From NCBI GenBank assembly GCA_000165345.1, contig CM000431.1, forward strand, positions 832,001 through 896,000: DNA of 64,000 nucleotides. Reading direction: 5' to 3'. The notes below the pieces were generated by a model that was given only the letters and a program-made list of their open reading frames with translations, was not told the origin of the DNA and searched no databases. Shown piece after piece: positions 21,978 to 53,037 of the stretch. How positions within the stretch are numbered: position 1 is the stretch's first letter; each line of letters starts with the position of its first letter. The position numbers and the translations under genes were made by a program.

Positions 21978-23174
21978 TTACAATATAAAATAGGGGCACT
22001 TATTAGAAATGAACCAATGTTCAAAATCTTCAATAGAAATCATATTATCTGAATCCTTATCCAAATGATCGAATATGATTTCTATTTCACTTTTTGAAAT
22101 ACTGAAAGGGAAATTCAATGACTTTAATCCGTTGAATAGCTCATCCTGGTTGATTTGGCCATTTCCATCTTCATCCAAAGCATTAAAAAAACGGTGGATT
22201 TTTTTAAGCTTATATTCAGGGTCGTGATCTTTGCTTATTTTAATATTTCCCAATTCAGAATGGGAAATTTCATCTCTATTATAAATACCTAGATCTTCTA
22301 AATCCCTGCTCCCGTAATACTTGAGGATATTTAGAATCTTTCTTAGCTTTGAAGCTGCTAATATCCCAAATATAATGTTAAGTATTCCTGTAAGCCCTAC
22401 AAATAGTGACATGAGTGAGAAGTATGTAGATTGAGTTAAATATAGAGAAATGGTGCAGAGCAGAATTTGTATAGATCCTCTTCCAACTGATAGTTCTAGG
22501 AATTTGAACCAAGTGCGAACAAATATCTCTATGTGCTTGATTCGCTTCTTTTTAGATACTTCAATGATTAAAACTACAGAGGATATGGATATAATATATA
22601 GCGAGATGACTATTGCTAGCAAGTTTATTGAGATCAGTCCAAAAATGCAGTTTAGGGTACCCATCAAGAACAGGTTTGCGGTTGCTACCTGAGATAAAAC
22701 CCTGAATGATTTTTGTCCCTTAAAAACCTGATCCCTAAACTCTAAATACTGCTCCAATAGGTCCTGTTTTACTTCTAGAAATGAATTCACCGCTTCTTTC
22801 TTTAAGTTTTGAAAAAGTTCATTATCCGTTTTATCTTGGATATCAATTTTTTGTTCATACCGTTCTTTTTTCAGGAGGTGAGCACTTTCGTCGTTGCTGA
22901 GGTTCCCCTGTCCAGGTTCCCCATTTTCCTTTAAACTAACACTCTCTATCTCCCCGTCACATTTCTTCCCATTTGTATTTCCAAGGTTTACTTTGATTTT
23001 ACTTCCCTTGTCGATATTTCTCGACTTTTCGCTATGATTAGCCTTATTGTTTTCATTTTCCTGATTATTTTCCCTTTCATATTCATCCTCATAAATAACA
23101 ACGGAATCTTTGGAAGATCTGAGCTCCTTTTTGTCGGAATCTGGAGTTTTATGGTCGGGATTGTTTCTTCTCAT
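21978..23174 (-). CDS. Multipass membrane protein with two C-terminal EF-hand Ca2+-binding loops.
   Basis: The track ORF starts at a TTG (23219); the first ATG is 23174..23172 (MRRNNPDHK). Several hydrophobic helices. C-terminal DEDGNGQINQDELFNGL and DKDSDNMISIEDFEHWF are canonical EF-hand loops. Confidence 0.75.
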   Translation of the reverse strand: MRRNNPDHKTPDSDKKELRSSKDSVVIYEDEYERENNQENENNKANHSEKSRNIDKGSKIKVNLGNTNGKKCDGEIESVSLKENGEPGQGNLSNDESAHLLKKERYEQKIDIQDKTDNELFQNLKKEAVNSFLEVKQDLLEQYLEFRDQVFKGQKSFRVLSQVATANLFLMGTLNCIFGLISINLLAIVISLYIISISSVVLIIEVSKKKRIKHIEIFVRTWFKFLELSVGRGSIQILLCTISLYLTQSTYFSLMSLFVGLTGILNIIFGILAASKLRKILNILKYYGSRDLEDLGIYNRDEISHSELGNIKISKDHDPEYKLKKIHRFFNALDEDGNGQINQDELFNGLKSLNFPFSISKSEIEIIFDHLDKDSDNMISIEDFEHWFISNKCPYFIL

Positions 23175-23743
23175 TTCAATAAAGAATGTGAGAATAGAAA
23201 CAATATAAACATAGATCAAAAAGTAGTTTATTTTTAAAAAACTTAAACAAAGAAAGAAATGACAATTTTTATTATTTTTTTTCCAAATTATTCAGGCCTC
23301 TAAATCCTATACCGGCATTGGGTATCGGATTTTTTTTTATATAAAAATGCATCTACGTGGCCCCCCACAAAGTAATTAGTCCCCCCTCTTCTATAAATAT
23401 ATTTTTTATATGAAAGATTTAATATATTAGAAATTAAATAGATAAAATTTGGAGTAAATATCTTAGTAAAGAGGAGGAAAGTGAAATGAATATAGATTAA
23501 CAAATATATCTAAAATATAAACCTAGACATAAATATCCTAACTTAACTTAAATCTAAATGGTTTTTAAAATATGATTTTAAATCTGATGAATTTCTAATG
23601 TATTTTTAAACATATTCTCTTGCTAAATTAATAAAATAATAACCTTTTTACCTGAATTTCCCAGAATCTGGTAGTTTATTGCATTCATACTGAAATAGCT
23701 AGGATTTTACTCGGATTATTTTAAAGCAATTATATTCAACCCC

Positions 23744-26700
23744 TTATTCAACCACTTTTATTAGCTGGAATAGATTTCCCTTCCTCTGTAGTGCACATGT
23801 ACCTGGCTCAATAAAGTCACCTTTGACTGCATTGTGAAGAGTAATACTTGGATCCATAGGCCACCAATTAAATGGCCTTGCATACCATCCTAAAGTATTT
23901 CCAAGAGCTGTAGTTTGGGGAACATCCTCCAATGTTGGAATATGCCAAATCCCAGATGTAACCCAAGTTACTACGTCTCTATGTCGGATAACTTCATCAT
24001 CCATAATGAACGAATCAAATCTGACAGCAGGTTTTGAAGCGAATTTATTATCTCTTGGAAGATCTGCATCAAGTTCTGAGTACTTAAACACGGAAGAAGC
24101 CAAATCATACTTTGACCAAGATGCTGGTCCTGAGTAAAGCTCATGTTCAGGCATCAAGTCTGCAATAGATTTAATAGATTTTATCATAAACCCACCAACA
24201 TTCCCATAAGTTTGTAATTTTTCATCAACAACAAAGTATGCTTTAGGATGATGATGAGTTTCATTCAGCATAGAATAGGCATTTGTTTCTCTTTCTGCTA
24301 TAATTCTCTCCAAAATATGGTGTCCTTCTTTCTCAGGATCTCTCCTTACTTTAACCCAAGCTACAGAATTATCCGTATAGTCTGGTCCAAGATCAAAGTC
24401 GACCTTCCAAACAGCAAAGTGAGAGTGTAAAGCTGCCATTTGTCCAGATGGAGTAATCTGAGTCCCGTATTTCTTTTGTTTAGCAGAGAAATATGGTACT
24501 TCCAGACCTGCATATAGTTCACCTGTAAAGCTGACTCCCATTTCAAATGATCCCTGATTATACAAAATAAGGTCTACAATGTAATCGTAGTTGGAGACTG
24601 TAATAATTTGCCTGATAACTAGACTAGTAAGGGGTGCAGCATCTTTAATACCTCCAGATTTCCAATGGGATCTAATTGGTCTTCCAGTATCTAACTCGAA
24701 GATACAGGCACTGCTATCCCAGAAGATAGTCTGAGCAGTGTTTGCGCATTCAAGACCAGGATGGACTTTTCTTGCTGCTGTACCTAAACCTCCGTACCAA
24801 CTGTCCAAGAAGAACCACTGTCTTTCAAATACGGTATAATGAGCCATTGCGTCCACCATTGCAACTTCAAATGCCACTCTTCTTCCTAAAAATGTTAAAT
24901 TCCATATTTTCAGCCCACTATCACGATCATTTGTGAGAGTTAGCTCCCATCCAATCCAATTGACTGTATAAGCCTCTCTATTAGGGGATTTGAAAACTTG
25001 GAATCTTCTACCTCCAGGTTCACAATGTTCAGGTTTAGCTCTGGATTCCAATCCTCCTCTACTAAACATCTCAAGGAACTGAAGCTTTCTTAGCCTTAGT
25101 TCATTCATATGTTTTTCTCTTTGTATTCTTCTCTCTTGTAGAATATTTGGAGTTACAAGTTTTAAAGGAAGGTTGCTAAATGGAGTACCTGAGCTCTGAC
25201 TTTCTTCAATACTTGCTTTGGCTTCATTGTAAGTACTAACCAAGTCCTGAAGAGTTTTAAAAGAAGTTCCATCATACCAAATCCTATTTACCAACATCTG
25301 ATGCATCCTGTCAAACTCTATCTTTGCGTGGCCATTTCTAATGCTCTCTAATGTTGTATAAGGTGCCTTCAATTCGAAAAATATTGGACACTGATTACCT
25401 TCTTTTGTTTTCAAGCCTATCCATAGCTTTGGCTCTGCATCTTCATCCTCATCTTCTTCATCTACATCTTTTCTTTCCTGTTCTTCCTCATTCTCTGAAG
25501 TAACGTTGTGAGGTTGATAAATTATTGGACCTAATTTGACATAATCCTTTCCAAATACTTGGTCTCTGGGAAGATAATTTCCACAAGTTTCGAATACTAT
25601 CTTATCCAAAGAATTCTGTTCCAAAAGCTCTCCCAATTTAAGCATTGGAATTGAGAATCTTGTTTTTCCTTCATCATTTATTATAATCTGCTCCAGCCTC
25701 CTCCCAAAAGGTCCAGTAGGATTCCAGCCATCACATTCTACTGGTCTTGGCTCAGATATTGGATAATGTTTCATTGCTATAATTTTCTCATCTTCACTTA
25801 CGTTGCTAGTAGTGTTTGAATCTGCGACATTCCATAAGCCGATATTCTCAGTCTCTTTTTTGGTAAGAATAATAGGTCCAACTTTCCACTGATGGTAAAG
25901 ACCATTCAATCCAAGAGGATCAACCATATTTTCAGTTTCATTGCAAGATCCAAACCTAACTCTTGCATATCTCTCTGGAGGGTTTGGCTTTGGGTAAAGC
26001 TCTGGAGTCCTTTTATGTAGATCTAGGGAATCCAAATATTCATAGGCCTCAGTCTTATTCACAAACAATGTGACCCTATAAGGACCTTTTGACCCAACTG
26101 ACTCCTTTACTGAGTCAAAGTAGCTCCTAACTTTCATTTCTTCTAAATATGTCAAAGGATCAAAAGGTGTTTCCATTCCATTTTCTACTTCTGAAGGGTA
26201 TGAAGGGATATCACAAAACTTTCCAAAAGAAGAAATATCCTTTGCTGTTGCCCATATATCTGAGATAGTCATTGTTAGTCCTGTCCTACTCTGAGCCATA
26301 CAATAAATAATATACTTTTGGTTGCCTTCAATTCCATTCAAGATTAGTTGCTTTTCTTCTTTAGGATCACTTACTTCAGTATTTTGGCCATACTTTTCGA
26401 TTTCACTTGGACTTGGATACATACCTTCTGGTAGAGTTGCTACACAAGTTATCTTTCCAGGGGTATCACTCTTTACAACAATATTAAATCTTCCAAGTTC
26501 CGGTACAATCCTCGTGATCTCAATTTTTGGAACTCTATCTTTAGTTGTGACTCTCTTGGTTAAGTTTGCCAACACTTTTTCAAAGCTTATTCTATTTGAT
26601 CTTGGTAATGCTAAATCCTCTGCCAAACAGACTATATCATATTCTGTGGATGGAATTAAATTCCTAATTGATAGTTTAATATCTCCACTAATATCCTTAC

Positions 26701-29053
26701 TGGAGATATTTTTCTCAACTCCACTACTTTTTATAAGTTTTACAAGCCTCTGTTCATCAATATGGTCTTTGTTTGCCAAATCTCTAATTCTTGAAAAGTT
26801 GTTATTATTGTCTGCCATACACCAAATCGTTCCTGATTCATTAATCTTCAAAGTAAGCTCAACACTTTCCTCTAATGTTTTAAATTGCTTTATTTCAAGT
26901 TCTGGACTCTTTGAATCAGTAGTTACTCTTATTCTTGAGTATTCAACAGAAAGATCATCCACACTAGAAACAGAGTCAGTATTTCCCTTATTCTTAATGA
27001 TTCTACTAACTTCCTCAGAGAAGCAGAAGAGATCGTACTCTGTATTTGGTCTAATTTCACCCTTAGAAAATGATGAAATAACAAATGTATGACTCTCCTT
27101 TATATTTAAAGATTTCGGGGCTCTTTGTCCATATTTCTTAAGAACTGATACTGTTGGTGTAATAGCTCCTGCTCTGGTAATTCCACACCAAACATCCACT
27201 CCCTCTCTGTTGGACTTTATTGTAGCTCTAATTGTTTTTTCATCTGCTTCAACCTTTTCTATCTGTATTGAACCAATACTTAATTCAGTCTTAAGGCTAG
27301 ATCCTTGCTTGAATCCTTCTCCAACTTTAATCACTTCATCAAAGAACCTGAATTCCAAGTAGCTTCCACTATTCCATCCATCTCCGTAAGAATCATGCAA
27401 GCTTACAGTGTAGTTTCCATATCCTGGTAGACAGCATGGAATCCAGTCAGTACTTGAAACAAGGTCAGAATTTACATTAATATTATTGAAAGAGTAGGTT
27501 CTTCCACTACATCCCAAAGCTCCCTCTACTTCCCAAGACTTCTCAGTTGTGAAGTTACTACTTACAAGCCTTACTTCTCCCCATACACATCTTTGGTCCT
27601 CTCTCTCACTAGATCTCATTACCTCATTTGAGCAATGCCCTGATTTTACAATAATATCATCCAAAGCAATCAAGCTATCCTCAGAACGTCCACCAACTCC
27701 CTCAATAATCATTCTCAAGGGAGTTATACCGTCAGAATAGAATTCAAACCCCCCAAATTGCCATGATGGACCCTGCTGCCCTACAACAAGCCAGTTTGGA
27801 CGTCCATAATGCAATGTAGGTTTTGGGATTTTGTTTTCCAGACGATTTCCTTTACCATCAAGTTGAACTGAGTTCAAAAGACCTGATGCCATATACATCC
27901 TTAACACATTTACATCAGCTCCTGCCATGAAATATCTTAAAGTTAGACAATGACTACCAAAGCTATATACCCTTGGATTTCCTATTAATACTGCTGAAGC
28001 TCCTGGCATATATCCTGGTGCTCTAAAGAAAATATAGTGCCCTTCTCCCTTCACTCCTGTAGTTGTATCACTTTCTGGTCTCGACCCAACTATAGTTTCC
28101 TCACCAACTCCAAGTTCAAATCTTGTCTTTGTTTGGTAGTCTAAAAGAGAGCTGAATCCACAACCAAGGTAACCTTGGAGCTCAAAATCACAATTAAATG
28201 ATGAGTTTTCTTTGGTATTTAATAAACCAGCTGAATAAATATGTAATTTTGGGCTCATGGTATCCTTGAATGCTCTACTTCTTGCAGGAGAATAACAAAT
28301 TGTAAAACTATCAGCATCATCTTTAATCCCATTTATACTGAAGATTACTGTCGCCTGCCTAGCAGCAGATTTTTGCATATTATCACCAATAACAAGCTCT
28401 GAAGTCTCGTATGATCTTACTCCTTTAAACGGTCCCAAGCCAATTTTATTTGGTGGACATTTTCTTAGAATATCACTAAGTAGTAAGTTCTTTTGCTTAA
28501 TAGTCTTCTCTGGAGAATAATTTTCATTTTTTAGTAGGTAAATTGAATCATCTTGTGTTAGACCTACTCCAGATATAGCAACTATACAATTTGATCTTTT
28601 AATACAAAAGTATTCTTGAACAATTGGAGAGATTTCTACAATTGAGTTAGAAGGTCCAGATACTGCCTCATCCTCAGCCCCACTTTGTAACATATAGCCT
28701 CTATTCCCTTCTTCTGGACAGGAGGAGGCACCATCTATAATTTCTGTGGGATTTGGAGAATCTTGGGTATACAAATACAAAACACATCCTTTTTCGGATT
28801 TTTTGTCAGAGCTTACTGCCTTTTCTGGATTGTTAGATTTTTCCTGTAAAGATCTTAGCGAAGGTCTGCCTTTAGATTGTTCTTGTCTTTCTGGAAATAA
28901 TAGCTCTTCAATAGCTGAAGGTTCATTCATACTTGGAAGAATTCCCGCATTTCTAGTTAGTGGATTTGAAGCATCAGCTTCATTTATTTGACTACAGATT
29001 AGTTCAGATAAACTGAAAAAAGTCAGAAGCAAGAACTTTAACCAATGAAGCAT
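23744..29053 (-). CDS. Secreted multidomain protein (1769 aa): signal peptide, MAM domain, a Cys-containing GDGW module, three ~90-aa Ig/FN3-like repeats, and a C-terminal copper amine oxidase catalytic domain.
   Basis: Signal peptide MLHWLKFLLLTFFSLSELICS. MAM-like block FNCDFELQGYLGCGF...GHYIFF...IALDDIIVKSGHC at about 27640..28200. CAO TPQ consensus TVSNYDYIVD (NYDY at 24581..24592), copper ligands HSH and GIWHIPTLEDVP. Three repeats each end in ..TEYD..C.(A/S)E. Confidence 0.9.
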   Translation of the reverse strand: MLHWLKFLLLTFFSLSELICSQINEADASNPLTRNAGILPSMNEPSAIEELLFPERQEQSKGRPSLRSLQEKSNNPEKAVSSDKKSEKGCVLYLYTQDSPNPTEIIDGASSCPEEGNRGYMLQSGAEDEAVSGPSNSIVEISPIVQEYFCIKRSNCIVAISGVGLTQDDSIYLLKNENYSPEKTIKQKNLLLSDILRKCPPNKIGLGPFKGVRSYETSELVIGDNMQKSAARQATVIFSINGIKDDADSFTICYSPARSRAFKDTMSPKLHIYSAGLLNTKENSSFNCDFELQGYLGCGFSSLLDYQTKTRFELGVGEETIVGSRPESDTTTGVKGEGHYIFFRAPGYMPGASAVLIGNPRVYSFGSHCLTLRYFMAGADVNVLRMYMASGLLNSVQLDGKGNRLENKIPKPTLHYGRPNWLVVGQQGPSWQFGGFEFYSDGITPLRMIIEGVGGRSEDSLIALDDIIVKSGHCSNEVMRSSEREDQRCVWGEVRLVSSNFTTEKSWEVEGALGCSGRTYSFNNINVNSDLVSSTDWIPCCLPGYGNYTVSLHDSYGDGWNSGSYLEFRFFDEVIKVGEGFKQGSSLKTELSIGSIQIEKVEADEKTIRATIKSNREGVDVWCGITRAGAITPTVSVLKKYGQRAPKSLNIKESHTFVISSFSKGEIRPNTEYDLFCFSEEVSRIIKNKGNTDSVSSVDDLSVEYSRIRVTTDSKSPELEIKQFKTLEESVELTLKINESGTIWCMADNNNNFSRIRDLANKDHIDEQRLVKLIKSSGVEKNISSKDISGDIKLSIRNLIPSTEYDIVCLAEDLALPRSNRISFEKVLANLTKRVTTKDRVPKIEITRIVPELGRFNIVVKSDTPGKITCVATLPEGMYPSPSEIEKYGQNTEVSDPKEEKQLILNGIEGNQKYIIYCMAQSRTGLTMTISDIWATAKDISSFGKFCDIPSYPSEVENGMETPFDPLTYLEEMKVRSYFDSVKESVGSKGPYRVTLFVNKTEAYEYLDSLDLHKRTPELYPKPNPPERYARVRFGSCNETENMVDPLGLNGLYHQWKVGPIILTKKETENIGLWNVADSNTTSNVSEDEKIIAMKHYPISEPRPVECDGWNPTGPFGRRLEQIIINDEGKTRFSIPMLKLGELLEQNSLDKIVFETCGNYLPRDQVFGKDYVKLGPIIYQPHNVTSENEEEQERKDVDEEDEDEDAEPKLWIGLKTKEGNQCPIFFELKAPYTTLESIRNGHAKIEFDRMHQMLVNRIWYDGTSFKTLQDLVSTYNEAKASIEESQSSGTPFSNLPLKLVTPNILQERRIQREKHMNELRLRKLQFLEMFSRGGLESRAKPEHCEPGGRRFQVFKSPNREAYTVNWIGWELTLTNDRDSGLKIWNLTFLGRRVAFEVAMVDAMAHYTVFERQWFFLDSWYGGLGTAARKVHPGLECANTAQTIFWDSSACIFELDTGRPIRSHWKSGGIKDAAPLTSLVIRQIITVSNYDYIVDLILYNQGSFEMGVSFTGELYAGLEVPYFSAKQKKYGTQITPSGQMAALHSHFAVWKVDFDLGPDYTDNSVAWVKVRRDPEKEGHHILERIIAERETNAYSMLNETHHHPKAYFVVDEKLQTYGNVGGFMIKSIKSIADLMPEHELYSGPASWSKYDLASSVFKYSELDADLPRDNKFASKPAVRFDSFIMDDEVIRHRDVVTWVTSGIWHIPTLEDVPQTTALGNTLGWYARPFNWWPMDPSITLHNAVKGDFIEPGTCALQRKGNLFQLIKVVE

Positions 29054-29480
29054 CTTTTCTTGATTGTTTAAGCTTAAATTAAGATTATATATAATATTAG
29101 TGAGTTAATTTCGACACTTATTTAGCTGCATTCAGCCTTTTTCTTATGCAAAATAATCTTTATTAAATTTAAGGTTTAAATTAATTAATATTATTTGTTT
29201 ATATTAAAAGAATCTGTAAGCTTTTGAGCACTAGATTTAACTTATTAATGTATTTATCGCCAATACTTATACTCTCTAAGTTAAGAAGAAAAGGGAGGTA
29301 TTGGTGAAAATAGTATTCGAATCTATTTATATTTAGATTGAATAATATTAATTTTTAATTCCCAAAAATTATTTCAATTGATTTATATTTGAGAGAAATC
29401 AAATATTACAAATAATATCACTTTTACATCTTTAGACCTTACTTTATATGAAATTCAAACCTTGTTGCATCTACATGCTC

Positions 29481-29520
29481 GGATTTTTGCATGCAAATTG
29501 CAAACTGCATGCAAAAATCC
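29481..29520. promoter_or_regulatory. 40-nt hairpin-capable palindrome with two TGCATGCA (ApiAP2-type GCATGC) cores: GGATTTTTGCATGCA-AATTGCAAAC-TGCATGCAAAAATCC.
   Basis: Perfect 15-bp inverted arms around a 10-bp near-palindromic spacer. About 430 bp upstream of the MAM/amine-oxidase gene and 210 bp downstream of the mtHSP70 stop. Confidence 0.55.
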
Positions 29521-29730
29521 GTCTCAAGTAATTTTTACTTTTAAGTATAACTTGAGAACACTTAGGGAAATAAGAGAATATTTAAATTCACAAAATAATT
29601 GAATAAAAATGATAGAAAAGCTCAAAATTATTATTTAATGCCTTTAGACAAAAATCTAAAAAAAGCTATTAGAGTTAATAATACTAGGAGAGAGAAATCT
29701 CTAGGTTATAAAATATCATTGAATAAAAAA

Positions 29731-31782
29731 TTAAGAATCTGAATCTTGAGACTCACAGGAATTATCCTCATGATTAGCATAGTTTTCACTAGATTGATTA
29801 TCTGAATTACCTGGTTTATATGCCTTCTGAGTGATTGCCCAAGAGGCCTGTTTAAGCTCTTCCAGTTGTGATTTAATACTCTGAATAGCGGATTCATAGT
29901 CTGAAGACTGGGTAGATTCTTGTAAAATAGATTGTAATTTAGAAATCTTGGATTCCAAGCTATCTTTTTCTTGGGTATTGATTTGGTCAGCTAGAGAAGA
30001 AATTTGATTTTGTACAGAGTAGATAAAGGCTTCTGCATCATTCTTGAGATCAATAAGCTCTTTTTTAGCTTGATCATTTGCTCTGTATTCTTCAGCTTCT
30101 CTGATCATTTTCTCAATTTCAGCACCACTTAGACCTCCAGAAGATTGAATAGTGATCTCGTGTTTCTTTCCAGTTGACTTATCAATTGCACCAACATTCA
30201 TAATTCCATTTGCATCAATATCAAAGGTGACTTCAATTTGAGGTACCCCTCTGGGTGCTGGAGGAATTCCCATCATTTCAAATTGTCCAAGCAACTTATT
30301 ATCAGCAGCAAATTCTCTTTCTCCTTGGAAAACTTTAATTCCAACTTGAGTTTGATTGTCTGCAGCAGTGGAGAATACTTGGCTCTTTTTAGTAGGTATT
30401 GTGGTATTTCTGTTAATTAATCGAGTAAAAACTCCACCCAAAGTTTCAATACCTAAAGATAAGGGTGTAACGTCGAGTAACAAAAGATCCTTGATCTCCC
30501 CTTTCAAAACACCAGCTTGTATAGCAGCTCCCATTGCAACAGCTTCGTCAGGGTTAACTCCTTTTGATGGCTCTCTTCCAAAGATCTTTTTAACTGTTTC
30601 AGAAACTTTAGGCATTCTAGTCATTCCTCCGACTAAAATAACGTCATTAATCTTTTCCTTAGGGATACCAGAGTCACGAATACATTTCTCACTAGGAGAA
30701 ATAGTCTTTTTCAATAAATCGTCAACAAGTTCTTCATATTTGGCTCTACTTAGTTTGATTTGTAGATGTTTAGGACCTCTTGCATCAGCAGTAATGAAAG
30801 GAAGATTAATTTCAACTTGAGTCTTACTACTCAGCTCTTTTTTTGCAGTTTCTGAGGCTTCCCTTAACCTCTGTAATGCAAGCTTATCACGACTTAAATC
30901 TATTCCTTGCGTTTTCTTGAATTCCTGAATTAAATAATTCAAAATTCGTTGATCAAAGTCTTCTCCTCCTAGGGAAGTGTTACCATTAGTTGCTTTAACT
31001 TCAAACACTCCGCCAAGAATCTCTAAAATAGAAATATCGAAAGTACCTCCTCCCAAATCATAAACTGCGATTGTTTTGCCATCTGCTTTTTCCATTCCGT
31101 ATGCAAGAGCCGCTGCTGTTGGCTCATTAATGATTCTTGTTACATTTAAGCCTGCTATAGAGCCAGCATCCTTAGTTGCTTGACGCTGAGAATCATTAAA
31201 GTAAGCTGGCACAGTAATAACAGCATGCTTTACACCTCTACCAAGATAAGTTTCGGCAGTTTCTTTCATTTTTTCCAAAATAAATGCTCCAATTTGACTT
31301 GGACTATATCTTTCACCTCTAGCTTCAACCCAAGCATCCCCATTATCAGCCCTGACAATCTTATATGGTAAAATTCCCTGTTCCTTCTTGATTGCTTCTT
31401 CTTCGTACCTTCTTCCAATTAGCCTCTTTGTTGCGTAAACAGTGTTTTCTGGGTTTGTGATTGCTTGTCTTTTTGCAACTTCACCAACCAATCTCTGCCC
31501 ATCTTCAGAAAAAGCCACAACAGATGGAGTTGTTCGCATTCCTTCAGAATTTTCTAATACTTTGGGTTGAGTACCTTCTAATATGGCAGTACAAGAATTT
31601 GTAGTTCCTAAATCAATTCCTATAATGTCACCAGTAATTCTCCTATTTGAAGACTTTTTGCCTTCACATTTTGAGCTCATATACCTTGAAAACACTAACG
31701 GAAGGCTCCTTTTAAGTATTCTAGCTGCAATACCAGACGAATTCACCACCCCATTAAAGCTACTATTAATTATCATAGACAT
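29731..31782 (-). CDS. mtHSP70: Mitochondrial-type (DnaK-class) HSP70 with an N-terminal organellar presequence (683 aa).
   Basis: [36 protein letters not shown] and IDANGIM.V are DnaK/mtHSP70-class signatures (GIDLGTTNS rather than cytosolic ...TYS). About 50 aa of basic/Ser-rich N-terminus precede the ATPase domain. Confidence 0.95.
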
Positions 31783-31955
31783 TCTCGAAAGAACAAGTCA
31801 GTGATTTGACCAAGGAACAAATTCTAAATTTAACACTAAAAAGCAATTCCTTCTATTAAAGTACCTTTAACTTATTGCCGAATTCTCAAATTATTAAATT
31901 GGGCTTTTTTTTATTTCTCGAATTCCGTAAATAAATTTTGCTATACTGGGGCTTT

Positions 31956-31964
31956 TTGGCGCCA
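31956..31964. promoter_or_regulatory. E2F-like TTGGCGCCA, 175 bp upstream of the mtHSP70 start.
   Basis: GC-rich island in AT-rich intergenic sequence. Confidence 0.45.
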
Positions 31965-32442
31965 TAGGTGTTCTTCTGATTGTCAAAAATAGATAAAAAG
32001 ATTAGTTAAAACAAAAAAATGCAATAATGTTCAATATTTACAAGTAGAGTTTTAAATAATAAGTAGATTTTAGGTTAAATCAATAATGTTTAAATTTTAA
32101 AAAGGTTTAATCATCAAACTTGCTTTATTTTGAACAAAGGAATATTTTGCATGCAATAATTCAATTTAATATATTTCTACTTTTACTATTTGTATTAAAA
32201 TATTTTAATAGAGTATCATAGGCTAAGATTGACCTCTTTCCATATTTTTCATACCAACATTGAAAAAGTAGAGGTTTGGACACAACAGTTTTTCGATTCT
32301 AAAAAAATCCATATTAAGATATATTGATAGGAAAGTTAGTAGGGTTTATTATAAACCAACAACTAACATAAGTAAATAGGATTCTTTCACTTCATAATAA
32401 ATTCTTTAAGTTTTAGGCTTTAGACGAGCAAATTTTAATAAT

Positions 32443-33057
32443 ATGAAAAGGTATTACAAGAATGAAAGTTCAGGTTTGAGTAGCGTGTTGTCCATTCCAA
32501 GAACAAATACAGATTTTGAAGTTGAGACAGCTGCTACCAAGAGAGAAAGTAGAGAGTTTCCAAGTTTACCGAGTACTAGTATTGAGATAGATAGTGATGA
32601 ATACTGCAATATTTCAAGCGCATCTTTGGATTCAGTATGTATCAAGGATTTATCTAGATTGGAATCAAATTCTTTAATAAAAAAGGGAGACAGATTAAAG
32701 TACAAAACTGTTTGGATGGGTCCAGGAGGAGGTTATTCACTAATGGAGGAGTACACAGAACCAAGAAAATGTATGGAGAGGGAAGTTCCTAAAGAATCTG
32801 AGATGGAACTTAAAAGATATAGACAGCCTGGATCTTGTAAGAATAGTAAAAGTATGAACAACTTAGCAAGTAACTCAAGCGTTCAGGTTATTGAAGAAGC
32901 TGGTATTTTAAAGGAAGATAGCTACATATTCAAGTCTTCAAGATCTCTAGCAAATGTTGATTGGAATAAGCAGGAATTTGTTGGACCACTTCCTTTTCAA
33001 AATAAAGTAGCCATAGGAAACAGAAGTTGTTTGGGTAGAAACTTGATCCCATTATAA
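32443..33057 (+). CDS. Hypothetical Ser-rich protein, 204 aa, no recognisable domain.
   Basis: ATG-initiated ORF in an otherwise empty 1.3 kb interval. GCATGCA element about 290 bp upstream. Low-complexity composition, so coding status is uncertain. Confidence 0.4.
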   Translation: MKRYYKNESSGLSSVLSIPRTNTDFEVETAATKRESREFPSLPSTSIEIDSDEYCNISSASLDSVCIKDLSRLESNSLIKKGDRLKYKTVWMGPGGGYSLMEEYTEPRKCMEREVPKESEMELKRYRQPGSCKNSKSMNNLASNSSVQVIEEAGILKEDSYIFKSSRSLANVDWNKQEFVGPLPFQNKVAIGNRSCLGRNLIPL

Positions 33058-33132: not shown

Positions 33133-34887
33133 TTATACAGACCTCTTTTTAAGGCTTGGATGCTTACTATATGAGTGAGCAGAGTTACTACTGCTATTAT
33201 TACTATTATGGTGATTATTAATTGGATTTACTCCATTATTGTTAATTATGTTATTTTGAGTATTATAATTATAGTCCTTTCTTTTCTTGAATAGCTTGCT
33301 CTTCTTTTCATTTGAATTTCCAAAATCTTGTGTTTCTTGGAGAAGAGATGAGCGGATAGATTTTGGAAGCAACCCCCAAATATCTTTAACACTTTGTTGG
33401 GCCTGCTTAATAAGCTCAAAATTTTCTTTTGATAACATTGGAAACGACATTGCAAGTTGAATTTGTTGTTCTTCTGTCAAGTAAGGACCGCAAATCGGTA
33501 AAATTGGCTCAACAAATGGTTGGAAATGTGCATGAGCACCGTATATACCAGGATTTATCATATTTGGAGGCTGAATTACATATCCATATGGATGGGTAGG
33601 TCCTGTCTGTGGGAAAGGAGCTCCAGGGTATCCAGGATGGAAATGGTGTGATGCACCATCTGGAGCATATGCTGGATAGGGATGTCCTTGCATGTTCCAA
33701 GGATCCATAAAAGGGGGTGGTGCATGAATACCAGGGTGTGGCGGCAGCTGGTGAGTAGCTATAAGGGGAGGAGCATGGTGTGGGGGTAATACAGGAGCAG
33801 GCAAACCAGAGTATGAAGGAGCAGCAGCTTTTGCTTTTGGAATTATAGGAATTGAAGTTTCAATACTTTGCTCATTCAAATTAGTAATATTAGGTGGAGA
33901 GAGTTGCTTCAATTCTGCGTTTAAGTTTGTAGCTATAGCAGAAGAAGTTGCGTTTAGACTCTCGTCTGTTGTATTTTGAACATTTATTGAAGCCAAATTT
34001 CCTTCATTCCTATAAGTTGAGTCAACATTAGGAGCTTGCGGTATTGCAAGTTTGTGCTCAGAGCTCTCATTAGTATTATTTTCGACAACACATAAGTCTT
34101 TTTGCAAACTTTCTCCCACTGGAACAGAACTAGAGTCTTGATTTAAATTTTGTGCTAAAGTATTAACTTCCATACTTATCTTGACTTCATCCAATTCAGG
34201 ATCAGTTTTTGCTACGGAAACAGAATCATGTGTTAATGCTTCTCCAGAAATACTAGTGTCCTGGTTTTTGAGCAAATGATCTGAATCCTTAGAAACATCA
34301 GCTTCAGAATTTCTAACAGGGTAGTTAAACTTATCCCAGTCTATGGTCGATAACATATTAGCAAGACTCTTATTAGGTACACTACCTCTGAATCTTTGTC
34401 CACAGGAAGGACAAGGCTTAACGGCCACAGCTTTATTTTGCTCAAGATAATTCTTTACACAGTCCCTGCATGCAGATGCTCCACAGCTTCCAGCACATTT
34501 TATAAGTACTGGATTTAGTAGAGGAAATCCACATAATTTACAGATATATTCTGAAGGCAAGGTCAGTTTTGTTTCTTCTACAACTTCTGTCTCCTCACCT
34601 TCTGCAATACTCCTCTGAGCATCATGGTGTATCTCTTTAAGCTCCCTCCAAGGTATACGCTGTATTACTACTCTGGAGTAAATTGGCAATAACTTATCGT
34701 CAGGAAAAGCTTCTTTTTCATCGTTGTCAAATACCTTTAGATCAAAGAGTTTCATATATTCCTTACCCAAACCTGCATGCTCAGCAACGAGCATCTTCAA
34801 GTCTGAAGTTCTGACTGAAGTTACATTTAGCTCAATAGCACGATATGAATCCGATTTTTCATGTAAAAAGCGATAATATACCGACAT
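33133..34887 (-). CDS. RBBP6/Mpe1-like protein: N-terminal DWNN ubiquitin-like domain plus a Cys-rich RING/U-box-like module, with a Pro/His-rich tail.
   Basis: N-terminus MSVYYRF..SDSYRAIELNVTSVRTSDLK...PIYSRVVIQRIPW is a DWNN-type start. It is followed by CKLCGFPLLNPVLIKCAGSCGASACRDCV...CPSCG (eight Cys). C-terminal half is PHP-rich low complexity. Confidence 0.75.
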   Translation of the reverse strand: MSVYYRFLHEKSDSYRAIELNVTSVRTSDLKMLVAEHAGLGKEYMKLFDLKVFDNDEKEAFPDDKLLPIYSRVVIQRIPWRELKEIHHDAQRSIAEGEETEVVEETKLTLPSEYICKLCGFPLLNPVLIKCAGSCGASACRDCVKNYLEQNKAVAVKPCPSCGQRFRGSVPNKSLANMLSTIDWDKFNYPVRNSEADVSKDSDHLLKNQDTSISGEALTHDSVSVAKTDPELDEVKISMEVNTLAQNLNQDSSSVPVGESLQKDLCVVENNTNESSEHKLAIPQAPNVDSTYRNEGNLASINVQNTTDESLNATSSAIATNLNAELKQLSPPNITNLNEQSIETSIPIIPKAKAAAPSYSGLPAPVLPPHHAPPLIATHQLPPHPGIHAPPPFMDPWNMQGHPYPAYAPDGASHHFHPGYPGAPFPQTGPTHPYGYVIQPPNMINPGIYGAHAHFQPFVEPILPICGPYLTEEQQIQLAMSFPMLSKENFELIKQAQQSVKDIWGLLPKSIRSSLLQETQDFGNSNEKKSKLFKKRKDYNYNTQNNIINNNGVNPINNHHNSNNSSSNSAHSYSKHPSLKKRSV

Positions 34888-39400: not shown

Positions 39401-42400
39401 ACTTTTTAAAAAGAATAAATATGGATAATTGAGTCAAATTTAACTCTTTTGAATGGAAATACTTAAAATTTGTACTTAATTGATTGCTTGATTTTTCCAA
39501 AATAAAATCTAATGATGAGGAAATAATAATCATTTTAATTTCTTCAGGATAATTATTAACCTTATTTTCATCCTTAATATTATTCAAATATTTTGATCTT
39601 ATAAACATATCTTGGGATTCAATAAATTTGATAGTAAAACTCTTTATTGAATCCAAAACTTCTAAGTATGCTTTTCCACTCAAAATCTGAATTATCTCAG
39701 AGTAATATATTGGAATAAAATACTTATCCCAAAGAATTAATTCAAAAAATTCTTGAAAATTATATTCAAGAATTAAATTCATAAATTCAAAAACTTTTCG
39801 GAATAGAAATAACTCAATAGATTTTCTTCCTGATAATACAATTTGGTTTCTAGCATTAAATATTAATGCTAAAAATAAGTCTGTAATCACTCTCTTATTT
39901 TTTATCGGATCCATTGCAATTCTTGTGAATATTCTTTCCATTACTTGGTAAAATTCTAATTCGTTTGTGATTAATTTAGAGTTAAACATTTCTGTTCTTC
40001 TTAAGTTAATTAACGATACTTGATTCAGAATTAAAGAATATTTTTCGTCATTTATTATAAGCATCTCGCCATTGTTTTCAACGGTTGAATTTTGTTCGAT
40101 AATTTCTTCATCTTTAAACCATAAATTATTAAAAGAAATGGAATTTTTTAGATTGGTATATATTTGAATATTTTGACTATTTGAGCCATATATTATTTTG
40201 TTTTGGAAATATGTATTCGAACTAATGATCTCATTTTCATCTTTGGATTGAATTATTTCAGTATCCTTATTAGAATAGTCTGGAGAAGTTTCTCTAGAAC
40301 TTGAAGCTCTAGAAATACTTCTGGAATTATCTCGTGAATTATTATTAGAAAGTCCAGAATTAATAATACTTTTGGTAGAATTAAAGATATTTTTTGTAGA
40401 CTTGATTAATTTTCTATTGAAAAATTGATTAAAATGACGGCTATTCAAAGTATTTGACTTGGTTAAGTTTAAAGAAATTTTACTCAAAGTTAGAAATTTG
40501 GTCAAATCATTACCAAAAGCCTTACTTTTATTATTAATGAATTTATTATGATCAAAATAATCAGAAATATCTGTATTATTGCCTTTTAGTATGGTTTTAA
40601 CATAAAAGTATCTGTCAACTTGAGATACAATTCCAATCATGATTACCCATAAAATAAAAGGTACTTGATCTCCATAATCTTGGCTAATTTCAAAAATAGC
40701 TTTGATTGCTTCAATATTTAAATAATTAAGACTAGAATGTGTTGAAAAAGATTCATTAGAGATCAAATAACTCAAAAGTACCTCGGATTCTTGATTTGTA
40801 GAGTGAGCAAATGAATGAGATATAGACTTTTCATTTTCATCTTTTACTTTACATTCTTGTTTAGATTCAAAGCTATTGTAGAAATTCATACTAGTCTGAA
40901 AGCTTCTAATAATTAAATCTGAGTATTGTTCAAGTATACCACTTTTCTCTAATTCTGGAAATTTTAATGATTTTGAGTATTTTTCATCCTCAAAGCTGTG
41001 ATGATCATTTTTTAAAATAACCCTAATTTCCTCAGTTATATTAGAATTACAAAAGAATAAATCATTAAGATTGAGAGGTAATGTTAATGTATTAGTCAAA
41101 TAAGATAAAACTGTTAAATTGATCGTAAAAGACGATTCTAATCCAAGTATTATTCCTAGTTCTGTTGAATATTTTAGAATGGGTATCCAACTTATCATAG
41201 TTTCTTTTCCAAAACACATCCAAAAATCAACATTTGATAGCATTGTAGTAAAATAGCAACATATCATTTTTCCCAATAATATTATGTAGCTTTCTTCTAT
41301 TTCAATACGTTTTTGATTCATGGATTCAGTTCTTTTATATTTTCTGTTACTCCAATTTGGATGCATTTCTTTAATTAAATCAGAAATAGTAATTTGAAAA
41401 ATACTATTAATATCTCTAACTTTAATATCACTATTCTTATTATTTGTAATCCATTTTGATAAATTTTGGTTATTTCCAATTACACTGGAAGTTTGAAGAA
41501 TATTATTGCTATGGACTACTTTTGTATTTTTATTAAAACTTAATCCATCATATTGGAAATAAATACTTTCTTGTTGTATCTCACTTTTAATTGGTAGGTT
41601 TCTGCCTTTTAAACACTCACTCAAGCCAATAATCCATTGAATAGGAGTATTTGGAATAAATTTCCAGTAAACAATATCCTCTGAATAGATACCATTGAAG
41701 TAGATGGTTTCGAATTTCTTTTTAATTGATTGATATATAAACTTGAAAAGATCTTTTTGATTGGCAATGATTTCTGGATCAGTCTGAAAGCTGAGTAGAT
41801 TAGCGATCTTGTGAATTATTTCATTACTAATTATTTTAATTTGGAAATTGGAACTATAAGAAGAACTTGAATTGTAATAACAAGCATTTTTGCTATTATT
41901 AGTTAAACAAGTATTGGTAAATTCCAGATTTTGAATTAAATTAATAAGGTAATCAATATAAGGAAAGTAAACTTTGCATCTTTCCTTTGAATTTTCAAAA
42001 ATCCATTCATTCAAAGTAATATTATCATAAAATGCCTCAAGAGAGTCAACAAGTTTTGGAGATGATAATATTAAATCATTATGATTTTTGATAAAATCAC
42101 TTTTTGACATTCTATAATAATTTTTGATTTCTTTACTATGAGCATCAGTATGAAGCATGATTAGAGAGAAAGCAATGATGTAAATCTTGTCTTTATTTGG
42201 AAAGATTTCAGGATTATCCAAGAAATATCTGAGGGAAAATTCTTCAATAATTCTGTCTATTTTCTGGGCTTCTCCAGGAAGATGAAAGTTGGAAAGAAAC
42301 AAATATAAAGAGAAATCCAAGCTTTTATTTTTGAATGAAAACTGATTACAATAATGATTTAGTATTTCTTTGTTTCTTGGATTTGGAAGAGAAATATAGT

Positions 42401-49240: not shown

Positions 49241-52060
49241 TTAAATAACTCCTTTTAGAACGTAGGACATACAAACGATAAAGTATAAAATAAATGCTAA
49301 ACCCCAAATGCGATGAACTCTCCCTTTAGACAGTACGACAACCAGTGCTGATATTGGAAGGAAGTACAAGAGTTGGTAAGTAGCAGTAATAATTTGAGAT
49401 TCAAAGTGAAGGTGGATATCTTTTGAGAATCCTAATTGGATTGCTCTTACAAATACTGAACTTCCAAATCCAAATAGGAGAAGAAATACACATGCGCCAT
49501 AACATCCAGCGAGGCCCATATGTGCATGCCCAGCTCTTGAAACTGCTACATTAGCAAATAAGTCAGCAATTGAGTTACCCATTGCAACAATTGTGAGTCC
49601 AAGAATTGCAGGCTTAATTCCAAGGGTAAGCCCAATGACTTTAATGCATTCAACTAACTCGTTTACAAGGACTCCATTCCAATATATTGACATAATAATG
49701 CCAAAGAACATATCACAGTACATTAAAATGTCAGTTATAAACTTTCTGGTTTTAAATGATAATTGAACTTCTGGAAGCTTAATATTTGAGAAGGATCTAA
49801 CCCGATAGAGTCTATAATTCTGGGGATCATCTTTCAAGTCATCTTCACCTGTCTGATCATCTTTTCTTGTATTAAGAATACAAGTATATATGAAAAAGAG
49901 TACCAAAGATATAATAGATGAAAGAAGAAGAGCAATCAAGTAAAATAATGGGTAGCTGACGTAAATCTTCTTTTCAAATCCAACAGCCAAAACAATAAAT
50001 AAGGGTTGCATAATTTGTACTGATCTTCTAAGTGATGGAGACGGTACAGTTAAATACAATATAAACATGATTGGTGTCATTAAAAGTTGTCTAAAGAAAT
50101 CACAGAATTCAAAGAAGCCATCTAAAAGTCCCTCAAAGTCAGTATTAAAACTCATTCCTTGGAAAAATCCTTCACTTCTTTCATTTGATTGGGGTATCTT
50201 AAGTTGTAAAGTTGGGAAATTTGTACGATCATCAATAATGCATCTATCCTCTCTTAATCTTTGTCTTCCTCTCTTCTGTAACTTGAGAACATTTTCCTCA
50301 TGAGCAGGTGGAGGTAGAAGTGAATTGTGTAATGACTCAGTTTGATAAACAACTTCACTCATGGAAAGATTTCTTGAGAGTCTGACTGCATAGTCATCGC
50401 TTAGTAACACAAGTTGTGAGTGAGAACCGGATCTTTTAGTTTCATAATTAGAAATTGTGATTGATCCCAGGTTTGAAGAGTAGGAAGATGATGTAGCTGA
50501 GAAGTTGTTACTTTGGTAGGCATCAGAAATTGATATAGAATTAGAATTTCCAATTTGACTGCTTTGGTCACCTTTTAAGTGAGAAGCTGAAAGCTGTGAG
50601 CAGACTGGGGATTTAGATCTTTGGCTCTGGAAATTCCAAGGATTTGGAAGCTCAAGAGTATTTGCATAATTCCTCTCTCTATTTAAAAGATTCTTAGATG
50701 AATTTCTCTGAGGAAATGGAATCCTACAAGATTGTGCATTATTAACACCATATGCTTTTTCAAAGTCTTCATTATCTTTATCTCTTCCAAATCCATAATT
50801 TGAAGAAGGAGTCAGAACTTTACCGCTTAGATCATCATTTGTTAGACTAGGAGAGGGAGAATGAGTTGGAGTAAGCAAAAGTAAGGTCTTTTTAATACTT
50901 CTAGACTTGGAACCAATTCTATCCCAGTAGACATCACTATTAATAACTGTTCCTTTTTCTAGGAGCTGGCTTTTTTCATCATAAGAGAACTGTAAGTTAG
51001 AAAAAGATAACTTAATTGGAGGGATCTCTAAATCTGGAGTATTTCCATTGTCTGCTTTTTGAACATCTCTAATTGAATCAGGAGGAGTAAAAGGTATTGG
51101 AAGAACCGAAGGAATGGTATTGGAATAGCGATAATTAGGAATATCGCTAGTGATAGCAACATTTCTAAGGCTCAATTTACTTCCTCCCCTTACTTCATCT
51201 GAGTCAGTTACTTGCTCATATACTGGACCTACATATTCTTCCTTAATTGTTAGGTTTACTGGCATTGAAAGAGATGTATACTTCTCACTCCATTGAAGTA
51301 AAAGAACGTAAAATCCATAAGCAATTAATGGAATTACAGACATTTTTGAAGAAATGAATCCAAGGTGATGAATAATAAGTAGTTGAATTAATCCAATAGT
51401 GAGAGCAATTGTATCTCTTAGGTGATTAAATATTGGAATGTTAATATAATTTGAATTTTCACTGCTCTTTGAAAAAACCATTACACACCCAAAAACAACC
51501 AAGATAATAAATAAGCAAGCACCAATAACATCCCCAAGAAACACATCTACAGCATCTTTCTCTCCAATTGATACACTAATAATTCCGAGAATAACATCAC
51601 TGGCTGCATTACTAAATGCTAAGAGTGTAGATCCTGCAAATGTATCTGATAAGCTTAAACATTCAGCTAGCTTAATCATTAGAGATGAAATGTAAGTATC
51701 AGCAACGGTTCCACAAGCAATAAAAAGAATGCAGGACCATACAAGTAAGCATATAGCAAAAGTCACTTTGTTAAGGAGGAATCCAAAGAATGCAGAATTT
51801 CTTTCATTTGGTTGATCATTATCAAAAAGTGGTTCAAAAATATAAGTATAAAAGATTTTGGAGTAGGGAATTAGTGTAGATTGTTGTGATATTTCACTAA
51901 TCCAGTGGGATTGGTCCATAATGTTAAGTTCTGATCCATGGTCATCTGCGCTACAGCTACTATAGGATTCACATTCATCTGGAAAAGAAAATCCCCCTGT
52001 TTGATACTTCTCATTTGATAAATATATGAAAAATAGTAAAACCACAAAAATAGTCTTCAT
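49241..52060 (-). CDS. Cation/Ca2+ exchanger (Na+/Ca2+ exchanger, CCX/NCX family), 939 aa, with signal peptide and a large cytosolic loop.
   Basis: Two alpha-repeat regions: GSTLLAFSNAASDVILGIISVSIGEKDAVDVFLGDVIGACLFIILVVFG and GLTIVAMGNSIADLFANVAVSRAGHAHMGLAGCYGACVF. Multiple TM helices. N-terminal signal MKTIFVVLLFFIYLS. Confidence 0.8.
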   Translation of the reverse strand: MKTIFVVLLFFIYLSNEKYQTGGFSFPDECESYSSCSADDHGSELNIMDQSHWISEISQQSTLIPYSKIFYTYIFEPLFDNDQPNERNSAFFGFLLNKVTFAICLLVWSCILFIACGTVADTYISSLMIKLAECLSLSDTFAGSTLLAFSNAASDVILGIISVSIGEKDAVDVFLGDVIGACLFIILVVFGCVMVFSKSSENSNYINIPIFNHLRDTIALTIGLIQLLIIHHLGFISSKMSVIPLIAYGFYVLLLQWSEKYTSLSMPVNLTIKEEYVGPVYEQVTDSDEVRGGSKLSLRNVAITSDIPNYRYSNTIPSVLPIPFTPPDSIRDVQKADNGNTPDLEIPPIKLSFSNLQFSYDEKSQLLEKGTVINSDVYWDRIGSKSRSIKKTLLLLTPTHSPSPSLTNDDLSGKVLTPSSNYGFGRDKDNEDFEKAYGVNNAQSCRIPFPQRNSSKNLLNRERNYANTLELPNPWNFQSQRSKSPVCSQLSASHLKGDQSSQIGNSNSISISDAYQSNNFSATSSSYSSNLGSITISNYETKRSGSHSQLVLLSDDYAVRLSRNLSMSEVVYQTESLHNSLLPPPAHEENVLKLQKRGRQRLREDRCIIDDRTNFPTLQLKIPQSNERSEGFFQGMSFNTDFEGLLDGFFEFCDFFRQLLMTPIMFILYLTVPSPSLRRSVQIMQPLFIVLAVGFEKKIYVSYPLFYLIALLLSSIISLVLFFIYTCILNTRKDDQTGEDDLKDDPQNYRLYRVRSFSNIKLPEVQLSFKTRKFITDILMYCDMFFGIIMSIYWNGVLVNELVECIKVIGLTLGIKPAILGLTIVAMGNSIADLFANVAVSRAGHAHMGLAGCYGACVFLLLFGFGSSVFVRAIQLGFSKDIHLHFESQIITATYQLLYFLPISALVVVLSKGRVHRIWGLAFILYFIVCMSYVLKGVI

Positions 52061-52664
52061 TATAGCTGAATCTTACTGAATGCCGTAATGTATGTATAAT
52101 AATTAGATACTTATAGAGTGATTCTGACTGGTTACATATAAGAAATAGTTGAATTAATCAATAATATAAGACGGTTGATTTTTAATTAGCTTTTAGTAAA
52201 AATGAATTTAAATGAAAATATTACGTAGTTTTAAAGTTGCAATAATAAATTAGTATACAAATATAAATTCACCTCATTAGTATTGGTGGCGATGAGAATA
52301 ATGCTGCTCAATTACACATGAACAATGATTTCGAATAAGCTAATTTCTTTCTTTATTTCCAGAAATGATTAAAGACAAAAGCTTGAAGCTTTGCAGAATT
52401 CTTTGTGAGAGAAATAATACTGTTAAAGTTTCGTGGAAATTCAAGAATATTGCAAATATTAAATACTACCAGCTTCGCATATAGTCACCCTTACAAGGAA
52501 TATTCCTTATGACTGTAATTAAATCTTGCGCTTTTAAGCAAACAATGACTTTCAGTAATAATTTATTTTATTTTTGTATGGATTTGAATCCACTTTGTAC
52601 CACAACTTATGTTTAGTTTAGAGTCATTTAACGCCGTGCAATTTTGACAATTTGAAATCGATCC

Positions 52665-52724
52665 TTGGCGCCCTCTGAAATAACTTGAGGCCACCATTTG
52701 GCGCCTAAAGGGTAACCGCCATTT
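52665..52724. promoter_or_regulatory. Cluster of three E2F-like GGCGCC/GGCGG elements within 60 bp: TTGGCGCC at 52665, TTTGGCGCC at 52697, CCGCCATTT at 52716.
   Basis: Lies in the divergent region between the cation exchanger gene (-) and the zf-C2HC5 gene (+). Confidence 0.55.
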
Positions 52725-53037
52725 GACCTTTGAACTTCTAAAAGTAATATGTGAATGAATAAAAAAAAAGCATAGTGGTAATGGGGGGAACGAGAGTATT
52801 GTTTGTAGAGGATTGAAATTAATAAGAAAAACTTTTAAGCGTATTATGTAAAAACGAAAGAAGTGAAATTTAATTCATTCAATTGGAAATAATTTTTGTA
52901 AATATTATTTTATTGTATTTTAGTAGCTATTTATGTTGAGGTATTTAGACCTCTACTTTGAAGAGCTGGGTTGAAACAAAAAATAAAATGCAACATTAGA
53001 GAAATTTATCGAAGATTTTATTAGTAAAATACTAGAA

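Follow-up and report, generated by a model that had tools for sequence, protein, structure and literature searches.

We consider it likely that two copies of the octamer TGCATGCA, which lie within a perfect palindrome in the spacer upstream of the copper amine oxidase gene cgd3_3430 of Cryptosporidium parvum, are conserved ApiAP2 elements of the female-specific promoter of this gene, and that the long arms of the palindrome arose through one template switch. The best reading of the site is that of a well-delimited new instance of a known cis-element, with its hairpin or cruciform potential as a lineage-specific by-product. The sequence of the palindrome, its non-randomness, the conservation of the cores, the restriction of the long arms to one lineage and the exact reverse-complement relation described below were computed here. 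C. parvum was represented by one assembly only (chromosome 3, IOWA-ATCC, CP044420.1), and the cgd3 gene numbers were assigned from the source names and the gene order in the published expression table. Positions are those of the window, that is, the whole 64-kb stretch of DNA that was analysed. The genes around the site, the palindrome and its cores are as follows.

21978-23219, minus strand: cgd3_3420, EF-hand membrane protein (Pfam)
23744-29053, minus strand: cgd3_3430, secreted protein with MAM and copper amine oxidase, 1769 aa (Pfam, names, expression)
29480-29521, no strand: palindrome, 42 nt, 16-bp perfect arms and 10-nt spacer; form seen only in C. parvum
29488-29495, no strand: TGCATGCA core on the oxidase side (AP2_1 site), part of the deeply conserved element ATGCAAAAATYCGAG
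29506-29513, no strand: TGCATGCA core on the HSP70 side (second AP2_1 site; exact motif match and species comparison)
29731-31782, minus strand: cgd3_3440, mitochondrial-type HSP70 (Pfam); upstream neighbour on the same strand, roughly constitutive
33133-34887, minus strand: cgd3_3460, DWNN protein (Pfam)

The HSP70 protein encoded at 29731-31782 has an exact match in CP044420.1, where its neighbours are also the same. As HSP70 and the oxidase gene are both encoded on the minus strand, the 677-bp spacer that separates them (29054-29730) is downstream of HSP70 and upstream of the oxidase gene; the preliminary description had named the same two neighbours, and the ORFs (23744-29053 and 29731-31782, both minus) bear this out. 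Relative to the oxidase ATG, the palindrome lies 427-468 nt upstream; on its other side, about 210 nt separate it from the HSP70 stop codon, and the two cores sit 435-460 nt 5' of the ATG. The start codons of cgd3_3430 were homologous across species, with a signal-peptide-like N-terminus directly after each, and the distance from the motif to the ATG ranged from 82 nt (C. andersoni) to about 610 nt (C. ryanae). A small ORF of 27 codons that runs through the palindrome on the plus strand was rejected, its frame being broken by 3- and 7-nt indels among close species. The tRNA scan found no tRNA gene in the whole window.

The palindrome was found at the coordinates given in the preliminary description, with perfect arms of 16 bp instead of the 15 bp reported there (left arm CGGATTTTTGCATGCA, 29480-29495; right arm TGCATGCAAAAATCCG, 29506-29521). 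The loop between the 16-bp arms is the 10-nt AATTGCAAAC, and three extra inner pairs (TTG/CAA) give arms of 21 nt that are 90% complementary. Among all perfect inverted repeats of the 64-kb window with a loop of up to 20 nt, it has the longest arms; the runner-up has arms of 13 bp in low-complexity AT sequence. When the window was simulated with a first-order Markov model (n = 30), the longest arms were 10-14 bp, and none of the 30 simulations reached 16 bp. The palindrome was thus confirmed as real and beyond chance. The exact 15-mer arm has no match elsewhere in the window, the closest other match (32148-32162) having 2 mismatches, and matches with up to 3 mismatches numbered 7 against 3.36 expected, a count that 5 of 100 shuffles reached. 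The search within the window for further copies of the 15-mer arm therefore gave no exact copy, and inexact matches not clearly above chance; the arm is not a frequent, randomly scattered AT-rich k-mer there.

Other inverted repeats were noted in passing. The runner-up, at 4180-4213, has AT-rich arms and lies in a spacer, and a perfect repeat with 12-bp arms (GGATTCAATAAA/TTTATTGAATCC) lies at 39615-39654 within a 2578-aa ORF. An imperfect inverted repeat, TCTCAAGT...ACTTGAGA (29522-29557), adjoins the palindrome on the HSP70 side and holds AGTAAA in its loop; it is weaker in C. hominis and C. tyzzeri and gone in C. meleagridis.

Both cores match the AP2_1 consensus [T/C]GCATGC[A/G] exactly (consensus from PMC3734150, PMC4117751). 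The octamer is the AP2_1 motif, which is over-represented upstream of C. parvum genes, and on protein-binding microarrays both cgd2_3490 and cgd1_3520 bind it, the core TGCAT being bound in the same way by cgd8_3230 and cgd5_4250 (PMC3734150, PMC4117751); the suggestion that each arm contains a GCATGC-type ApiAP2 core was therefore borne out. According to a review, TGCATGCA ranked top among the over-represented intergenic octamers of apicomplexans. The Plasmodium AP2 domain that is orthologous to the AP2_1 binders forms a domain-swapped dimer on DNA (PMC6631176). With regard to stage, cgd2_3490 and AP2-F (cgd4_1110) are described as female-specific, AP2_1-like binders (review PMC12246861), and the five AP2 genes transcribed preferentially in sexual stages include cgd1_3520 and cgd2_3490 (PMC10233709). 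Seven targets of AP2-F have been reported, and cgd3_3430 is not among them. ATAC-seq of sporozoites, a different stage from females, gave no AP2 motifs in open chromatin.

Within the window, TGCATGCA occurs 6 times against 0.64 expected, and none of 100 shuffles reached 6. Five of the 6 copies lie outside ORFs, which make up all but 26% of the window (binomial P = 0.006), and all five are in 5' spacers. One further copy, at 32148-32155, is 295 nt upstream of cgd3_3450 (32443-33057, plus strand), has the same TTTTGCATGCAA flanks and falls in the spacer that this gene shares divergently with HSP70. When the upstream regions of cgd3_3430 and cgd3_3450 were compared, TTTTGCATGCAA was the sole common element; cgd3_3450 is also the sole other gene of the window with a log2FC above 8 in in-vitro females (Tandel 2019 supplement, PMC6877471). 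The genes adjoining the copies at 9212 (cgd3_3370/3380) and 53195 (cgd3_3520) are not female-induced, so that 2 of the 4 motif-bearing spacers of the window flank strongly female-induced genes and 2 do not. Since TGCATGCA is also found upstream of genes that are not female-specific, the motif alone cannot set the stage, which fits the existence of several AP2_1-binding factors with different expression times.

Two other spacers deserve mention. The divergent spacer between HSP70 and cgd3_3450 carries an E2F-like site, TTTGGCGCC (about 31955-31965), in keeping with E2F motifs being known to dominate the upstream regions of C. parvum genes. Between cgd3_3520 (Na/Ca exchanger, 49241-52060, minus strand) and the next gene (54403-57750, plus strand) there are 2.3 kb without an ORF of at least 150 aa (52061-54402); this stretch carries the TGCATGCA at 53195 together with a nearby half-site, ACATGCAT, and could contain an unannotated small gene or a non-coding RNA.

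The expression of the two flanking genes differs strongly. In supplement 4 of Tandel 2019 (PMC6877471), asexual stages have cgd3_3430 at log2 of about 0.2-3.8 and females at 10.5-12.8, and cgd3_3440 is steady at log2 of about 6-8.7; the RNA-seq data of the same study give cgd3_3430 a log2FC of 9.36, about 650-fold female-specific. Amine oxidases are counted there among the female-expressed modifiers of the oocyst wall, and the promoter of COWP1 was found to suffice for female specificity in C. parvum (Tandel 2019, PMC6877471). Because cgd3_3430 is female-specific and its neighbour cgd3_3440 is roughly constitutive, an independent stage-specific promoter must be in the 677-bp spacer, and the AP2_1 pair and the conserved block adjoining it are the obvious candidates for its elements. 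Locus-specific data were also looked for in the supplementary material to the lncRNA paper and Oberstaller 2013, where nothing useful turned up.

To examine conservation, orthologs were sought with the oxidase protein, the members of its cluster were listed, and the HSP70-oxidase spacer was obtained from 11 further species: C. hominis, C. tyzzeri, C. meleagridis, C. ubiquitum, chipmunk genotype I, the Logan species, C. canis (partial), C. felis, C. bovis, C. ryanae and C. andersoni. In the Logan species (L003, SRR31860986 contig 2212) the oxidase shares 85% identity with that of C. parvum and the gene order is the same. Metagenome scans by DNA pattern and by protein gave no further Cryptosporidium alleles. 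The arrangement of the cores was as follows.

C. parvum, C. tyzzeri, C. hominis: two cores, 18 bp between centres
C. meleagridis: two cores, 25 bp, with the 7-nt unit AATTGCA three times between them
C. canis, Logan species: two cores, 12 bp
Chipmunk genotype I, C. bovis, C. ryanae: runs of the TGCATGCATGCA type, cores overlapping
C. felis, C. ubiquitum, C. andersoni: single intact core

All 12 species keep TGCATGCA in this spacer, in 1-3 copies each, and the motif survives even where the surrounding spacer is unalignable (C. andersoni, C. bovis, C. ryanae). Where two cores are present, the distance between their centres varies from 4 to 25 bp. Outside C. parvum the arms are at most 9-11 bp, pairing beyond the cores being found in C. 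parvum only. The motif is conserved, and the spacing and the structure are not. The upstream position and the retention of the motif in 12 of 12 species agree with the proposal of the preliminary description that the element is placed to control the stage-specific oxidase gene. Small rearrangements are concentrated around and between the AP2 cores: the AATTGCA triplication of C. meleagridis (locus L002, 2533-2565) and expansions of a TGCA unit (TGCATGCATGCA and longer) in C. bovis (L005, about 2441-2460), C. ryanae (L006, about 2387-2398) and chipmunk genotype I (L012).

The origin of the long arms was apparent from the comparison with the closest relatives, for which the following features of the C. 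parvum sequence are needed.

29488-29518, minus strand: 31-nt reverse-complement segment, the putative template-switch product, relative to a C. tyzzeri-like ancestor
29496-29505, no strand: 10-nt spacer, in the opposite orientation to that of C. tyzzeri, C. hominis and C. meleagridis; contains the AATTGCA unit
29514-29518, within the 31-nt segment: new arm extension, AAAAT on the plus strand, in place of ancestral TA

In oxidase orientation, C. tyzzeri reads GAGACGG-TA-TGCATGCA-AATTGCAAAC-TGCATGCA-AAAAT-CCGAGCATG and C. parvum reads GAGACGG-ATTTT-TGCATGCA-GTTTGCAATT-TGCATGCA-AAAAT-CCGAGCATG. The 31 nt of C. parvum between the outer CGG and AAAATCCG are the reverse complement of TGCATGCAAATTGCAAACTGCATGCAAAAAT of C. 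tyzzeri at 31 of 31 positions, and the longest forward match of that segment to C. tyzzeri is 8 nt. In an ordinary alignment of the two species, 8 differences fall in the 42 nt of the palindrome and 14 in the other 635 nt (2.2%), a cluster with a binomial P of 3e-6; the C. parvum spacer, at 677 bp, is a net 3 nt longer than the 674-bp spacer of C. tyzzeri and C. hominis. There is microhomology at both switch points, namely CGG/CCG and the self-complementary TGCATGCA. The short state (CGG, 1-2 nt, TGCATGCA) is found in C. hominis, C. tyzzeri, C. meleagridis, C. canis and the Logan species, with a degenerate version in C. ubiquitum; C. tyzzeri, C. hominis and C. meleagridis have the forward spacer with the short arm, and in C. 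canis and the Logan species the spacer is shorter. The C. parvum state is derived, because the outgroups carry the short state and C. parvum alone differs. A plain inversion between CGG and CCG was rejected; it would move TA to the opposite side and give ...TGCATGCATACCG, which is not observed. Because one flank has AAAAT and the opposite flank has its complement, the sequence was copied and not flipped.

From this comparison, the ancestor would have been a quasi-palindrome, CGG-TA-TGCATGCA-AATTGCAAAC-TGCATGCA-AAAAT-CCG, on which one inter-strand template switch would have acted in the C. parvum lineage: the nascent strand would have copied 31 nt of the complementary strand and then returned, which would invert the spacer and convert TA to ATTTT. 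As far as can be judged from the alignments, the long arms are a by-product of this single mutation and not a selected feature. The cores and their 10-nt spacing are the same before and after the switch, and the spacer orientation and five flanking bases differ; as the cores and the spacing are intact, the change was probably neutral for regulation. Ripley-type quasi-palindrome correction and the short template-switch events of Loytynoja and Goldman are reportedly known kinds of such mutation. As in these, a cluster of substitutions with an indel is here fully explained by one reverse-complement copy, there is microhomology at the switches, and a longer, more stable hairpin results. Unlike in intrastrand hairpin correction, the spacer is also inverted here, which requires the opposite strand to serve as template for the whole loop, and unlike in the known cases the event involves paired transcription-factor sites that are self-complementary.

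On the oxidase side, the palindrome is continuous with conserved non-coding sequence.

29376-29495, minus strand: non-coding block, conserved over about 120 nt of the oxidase upstream region (alignments), with the palindrome at its HSP70-side edge
29410-29447, minus strand: near-invariant core of the block, consensus ATAATGTAARGTCTNAARATGTAAAARTGATATTAT; the C. parvum 5' end reads ATAAAGTAAGG...
29478-29492, minus strand: ATGCAAAAATCCGAG, ancestral element kept in 10 alignable species (C. bovis and C. ryanae among them); source of the conserved palindrome arm

The block runs from the oxidase-side core toward the oxidase gene (10 species aligned), and the flank on the HSP70 side is alignable among the closest relatives only. 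Since conservation runs toward the oxidase, the motif pair is tied to the oxidase promoter or leader and not to the 3' end of HSP70. A near-invariant stretch of 35 nt in the block is more conserved than the AP2 sites themselves (10 species, including C. bovis and C. ryanae). It contains the start-stop hexamer ATGTAA, kept as GATGTAAAA in all 10 aligned species; a second ATGTAA, 15 nt upstream, is present in 6 of the 10, and C. parvum, C. hominis, C. tyzzeri and C. meleagridis have AAGTAA at that place. No base pair was predicted in the consensus RNA structure of the block (10 species), and no copy of ATGCAAAAATYCGAG or of the 35-nt block beyond chance was found elsewhere in the window. A conserved uORF of 8-9 codons in the block was considered and rejected, as it is missing from C. 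felis and C. ryanae. According to the literature, uORFs are not yet described in Cryptosporidium. The block is an unexplained, highly conserved feature beside an element of known type.

Taken together with the expression data, the cores probably mark the distal edge of a conserved promoter or leader block of cgd3_3430. They would most likely recruit a sexual-stage ApiAP2 that binds TGCATGCA, the most likely candidates being cgd2_3490 and cgd1_3520, with AP2-F (cgd4_1110) less likely, and such recruitment would switch cgd3_3430 on in macrogamonts while the upstream HSP70 on the same strand stays roughly constitutive. The pairing of motif and factor and the stage-specific expression are taken from the literature; that such a factor binds here and drives cgd3_3430 is what we infer from them. 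The distance of 435-460 nt to the ATG is far by comparison with the mean C. parvum spacer of 504 bp, and was counted against the reading as a promoter site. Like other AP2_1 elements, the site consists of exact 8-mers (two here) in an intergenic 5' region and is conserved in the genus; in Plasmodium the AP2_1 motif is bound by PF3D7_1466400 (AP2-EXP/AP2-Sp), the C. parvum binders being cgd2_3490 and cgd1_3520. AP2_1 elements upstream of lncRNAs come in one or two copies, so that two copies are an ordinary arrangement. Unlike in the definition of the motif, the sites are here embedded in a perfect palindrome with 16-bp arms, and binding here is putative. Because the spacing of the copies is not conserved, there is no evidence for a fixed dimer geometry. 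As with the COWP1 promoter, strong female specificity must come from a short upstream spacer, in this case for a secreted enzyme; the COWP1 promoter has been validated with a reporter, whereas the cgd3_3430 spacer is a candidate promoter known from sequence and expression.

That the palindrome works through its structure, as a DNA cruciform or as an RNA hairpin regulating a flanking gene, is very improbable. As single-stranded DNA it folds at -18.3 (plus) or -18.9 (minus) kcal/mol (z of about -7.4), a stability attained by none of 200 shuffles, and its standing as the longest perfect inverted repeat of the window also favours a structural role. Against this, the other species have fold energies of -2 to -15 kcal/mol; the folds of C. 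tyzzeri (-9.9 kcal/mol, z -1.5) and C. hominis (-11.3 kcal/mol, z -0.9) cannot be told from those of shuffled sequence, and a comparable stem-loop is impossible where the cores overlap (chipmunk genotype I, C. bovis, C. ryanae) or where there is a single core (C. felis, C. ubiquitum, C. andersoni). The arm extension appears to be the product of one mutation, and a 10-nt spacer is unfavourable to cruciform extrusion, which was likewise counted against it. Pairing potential, by which a functional hairpin would be recognised, was neither conserved nor compensated across species. The earlier proposal that the 40-nt palindrome is a functional unit, be it as cruciform, hairpin or dimer site, was accordingly not supported: the long arms are confined to C. 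parvum, the spacing varies and the stability is not conserved. A small non-coding RNA gene, such as a miRNA-like hairpin or a snoRNA, is hardly credible. An Rfam scan of 28900-29900 at a permissive E-value returned sub-threshold miRNA and snoRNA matches only, among them weak matches to miRNA precursors over the hairpin (best mir-254, 26.3 bits, E = 0.005), but every match was far under its gathering score (26.3 against 70 bits, or worse), as a generic hairpin effect; moreover, the hairpin is not conserved, the conserved block has no consensus pairs and the window has no tRNA. We know of no canonical RNAi machinery in Cryptosporidium, and this was also counted against such a gene.

The position about 210 nt past the HSP70 stop codon, at a distance fairly similar across species (185-316 nt), would suit a role at the 3' end of mtHSP70, whether in its 3' UTR, in the choice of poly(A) site or in termination, and a sequence resembling a poly(A) signal is close by in C. 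parvum, C. hominis and C. tyzzeri:

29534-29539, minus strand: AGTAAA, which fits the poly(A) signal A(A/G)TAAA (PMC11761812); 12 nt from the palindrome on the HSP70 side

However, AGTAAA is limited to these three species and is missing in C. meleagridis and beyond, and if it is used, cleavage occurs and HSP70 transcripts end at or before the palindrome, so that the hairpin would be outside the HSP70 mRNA. Conservation goes from the motif to the oxidase, the HSP70-side flank diverges fast, and HSP70, being roughly constitutive, needs no stage-specific element. We therefore give this explanation little credence, and the 3' role for mtHSP70 raised in the preliminary description is opposed by the direction of conservation, toward the oxidase gene and away from HSP70. 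It is also improbable, in our estimate, that the site has no function at all, the TGCATGCA clusters coming from compositional or mutational bias and the palindrome being neutral debris. The spacer is certainly unstable, with slippage of AATTGCA in C. meleagridis, TGCA expansions in C. bovis, C. ryanae and chipmunk genotype I and the putative template switch in C. parvum; yet the cores are unchanged while all between them changes, the motif persists where the surrounding spacer is unalignable, the copies in the window avoid coding sequence, and TGCATGCA is an experimentally defined binding site of factors. The reading of the pair as conserved ApiAP2 elements of the oxidase promoter was preferred to all of these.

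Two wider readings were also considered, namely that paired self-complementary ApiAP2 sites are hot spots of template switching and slippage, and that the 35-nt block is a hitherto undescribed female-stage promoter element or an element of translational control by a minimal uORF. We regard these readings as unlikely; if the former is true, it would provide a general route for the remodelling of apicomplexan promoters. The perfected palindrome might also alter the cooperativity of factors or form a cruciform, and so shift oxidase expression relative to C. hominis and C. tyzzeri. As a natural case the locus is a clean one, in which one template switch appears to have made two transcription-factor sites into a perfect 42-nt palindrome, and it cautions that perfect inverted repeats found in one genome only need not imply function. 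For Cryptosporidium, where almost no ApiAP2 targets are known, the two AP2_1 cores and the block of about 120 nt within 677 bp provide a precise, testable map of what is likely to be a compact female-specific promoter.
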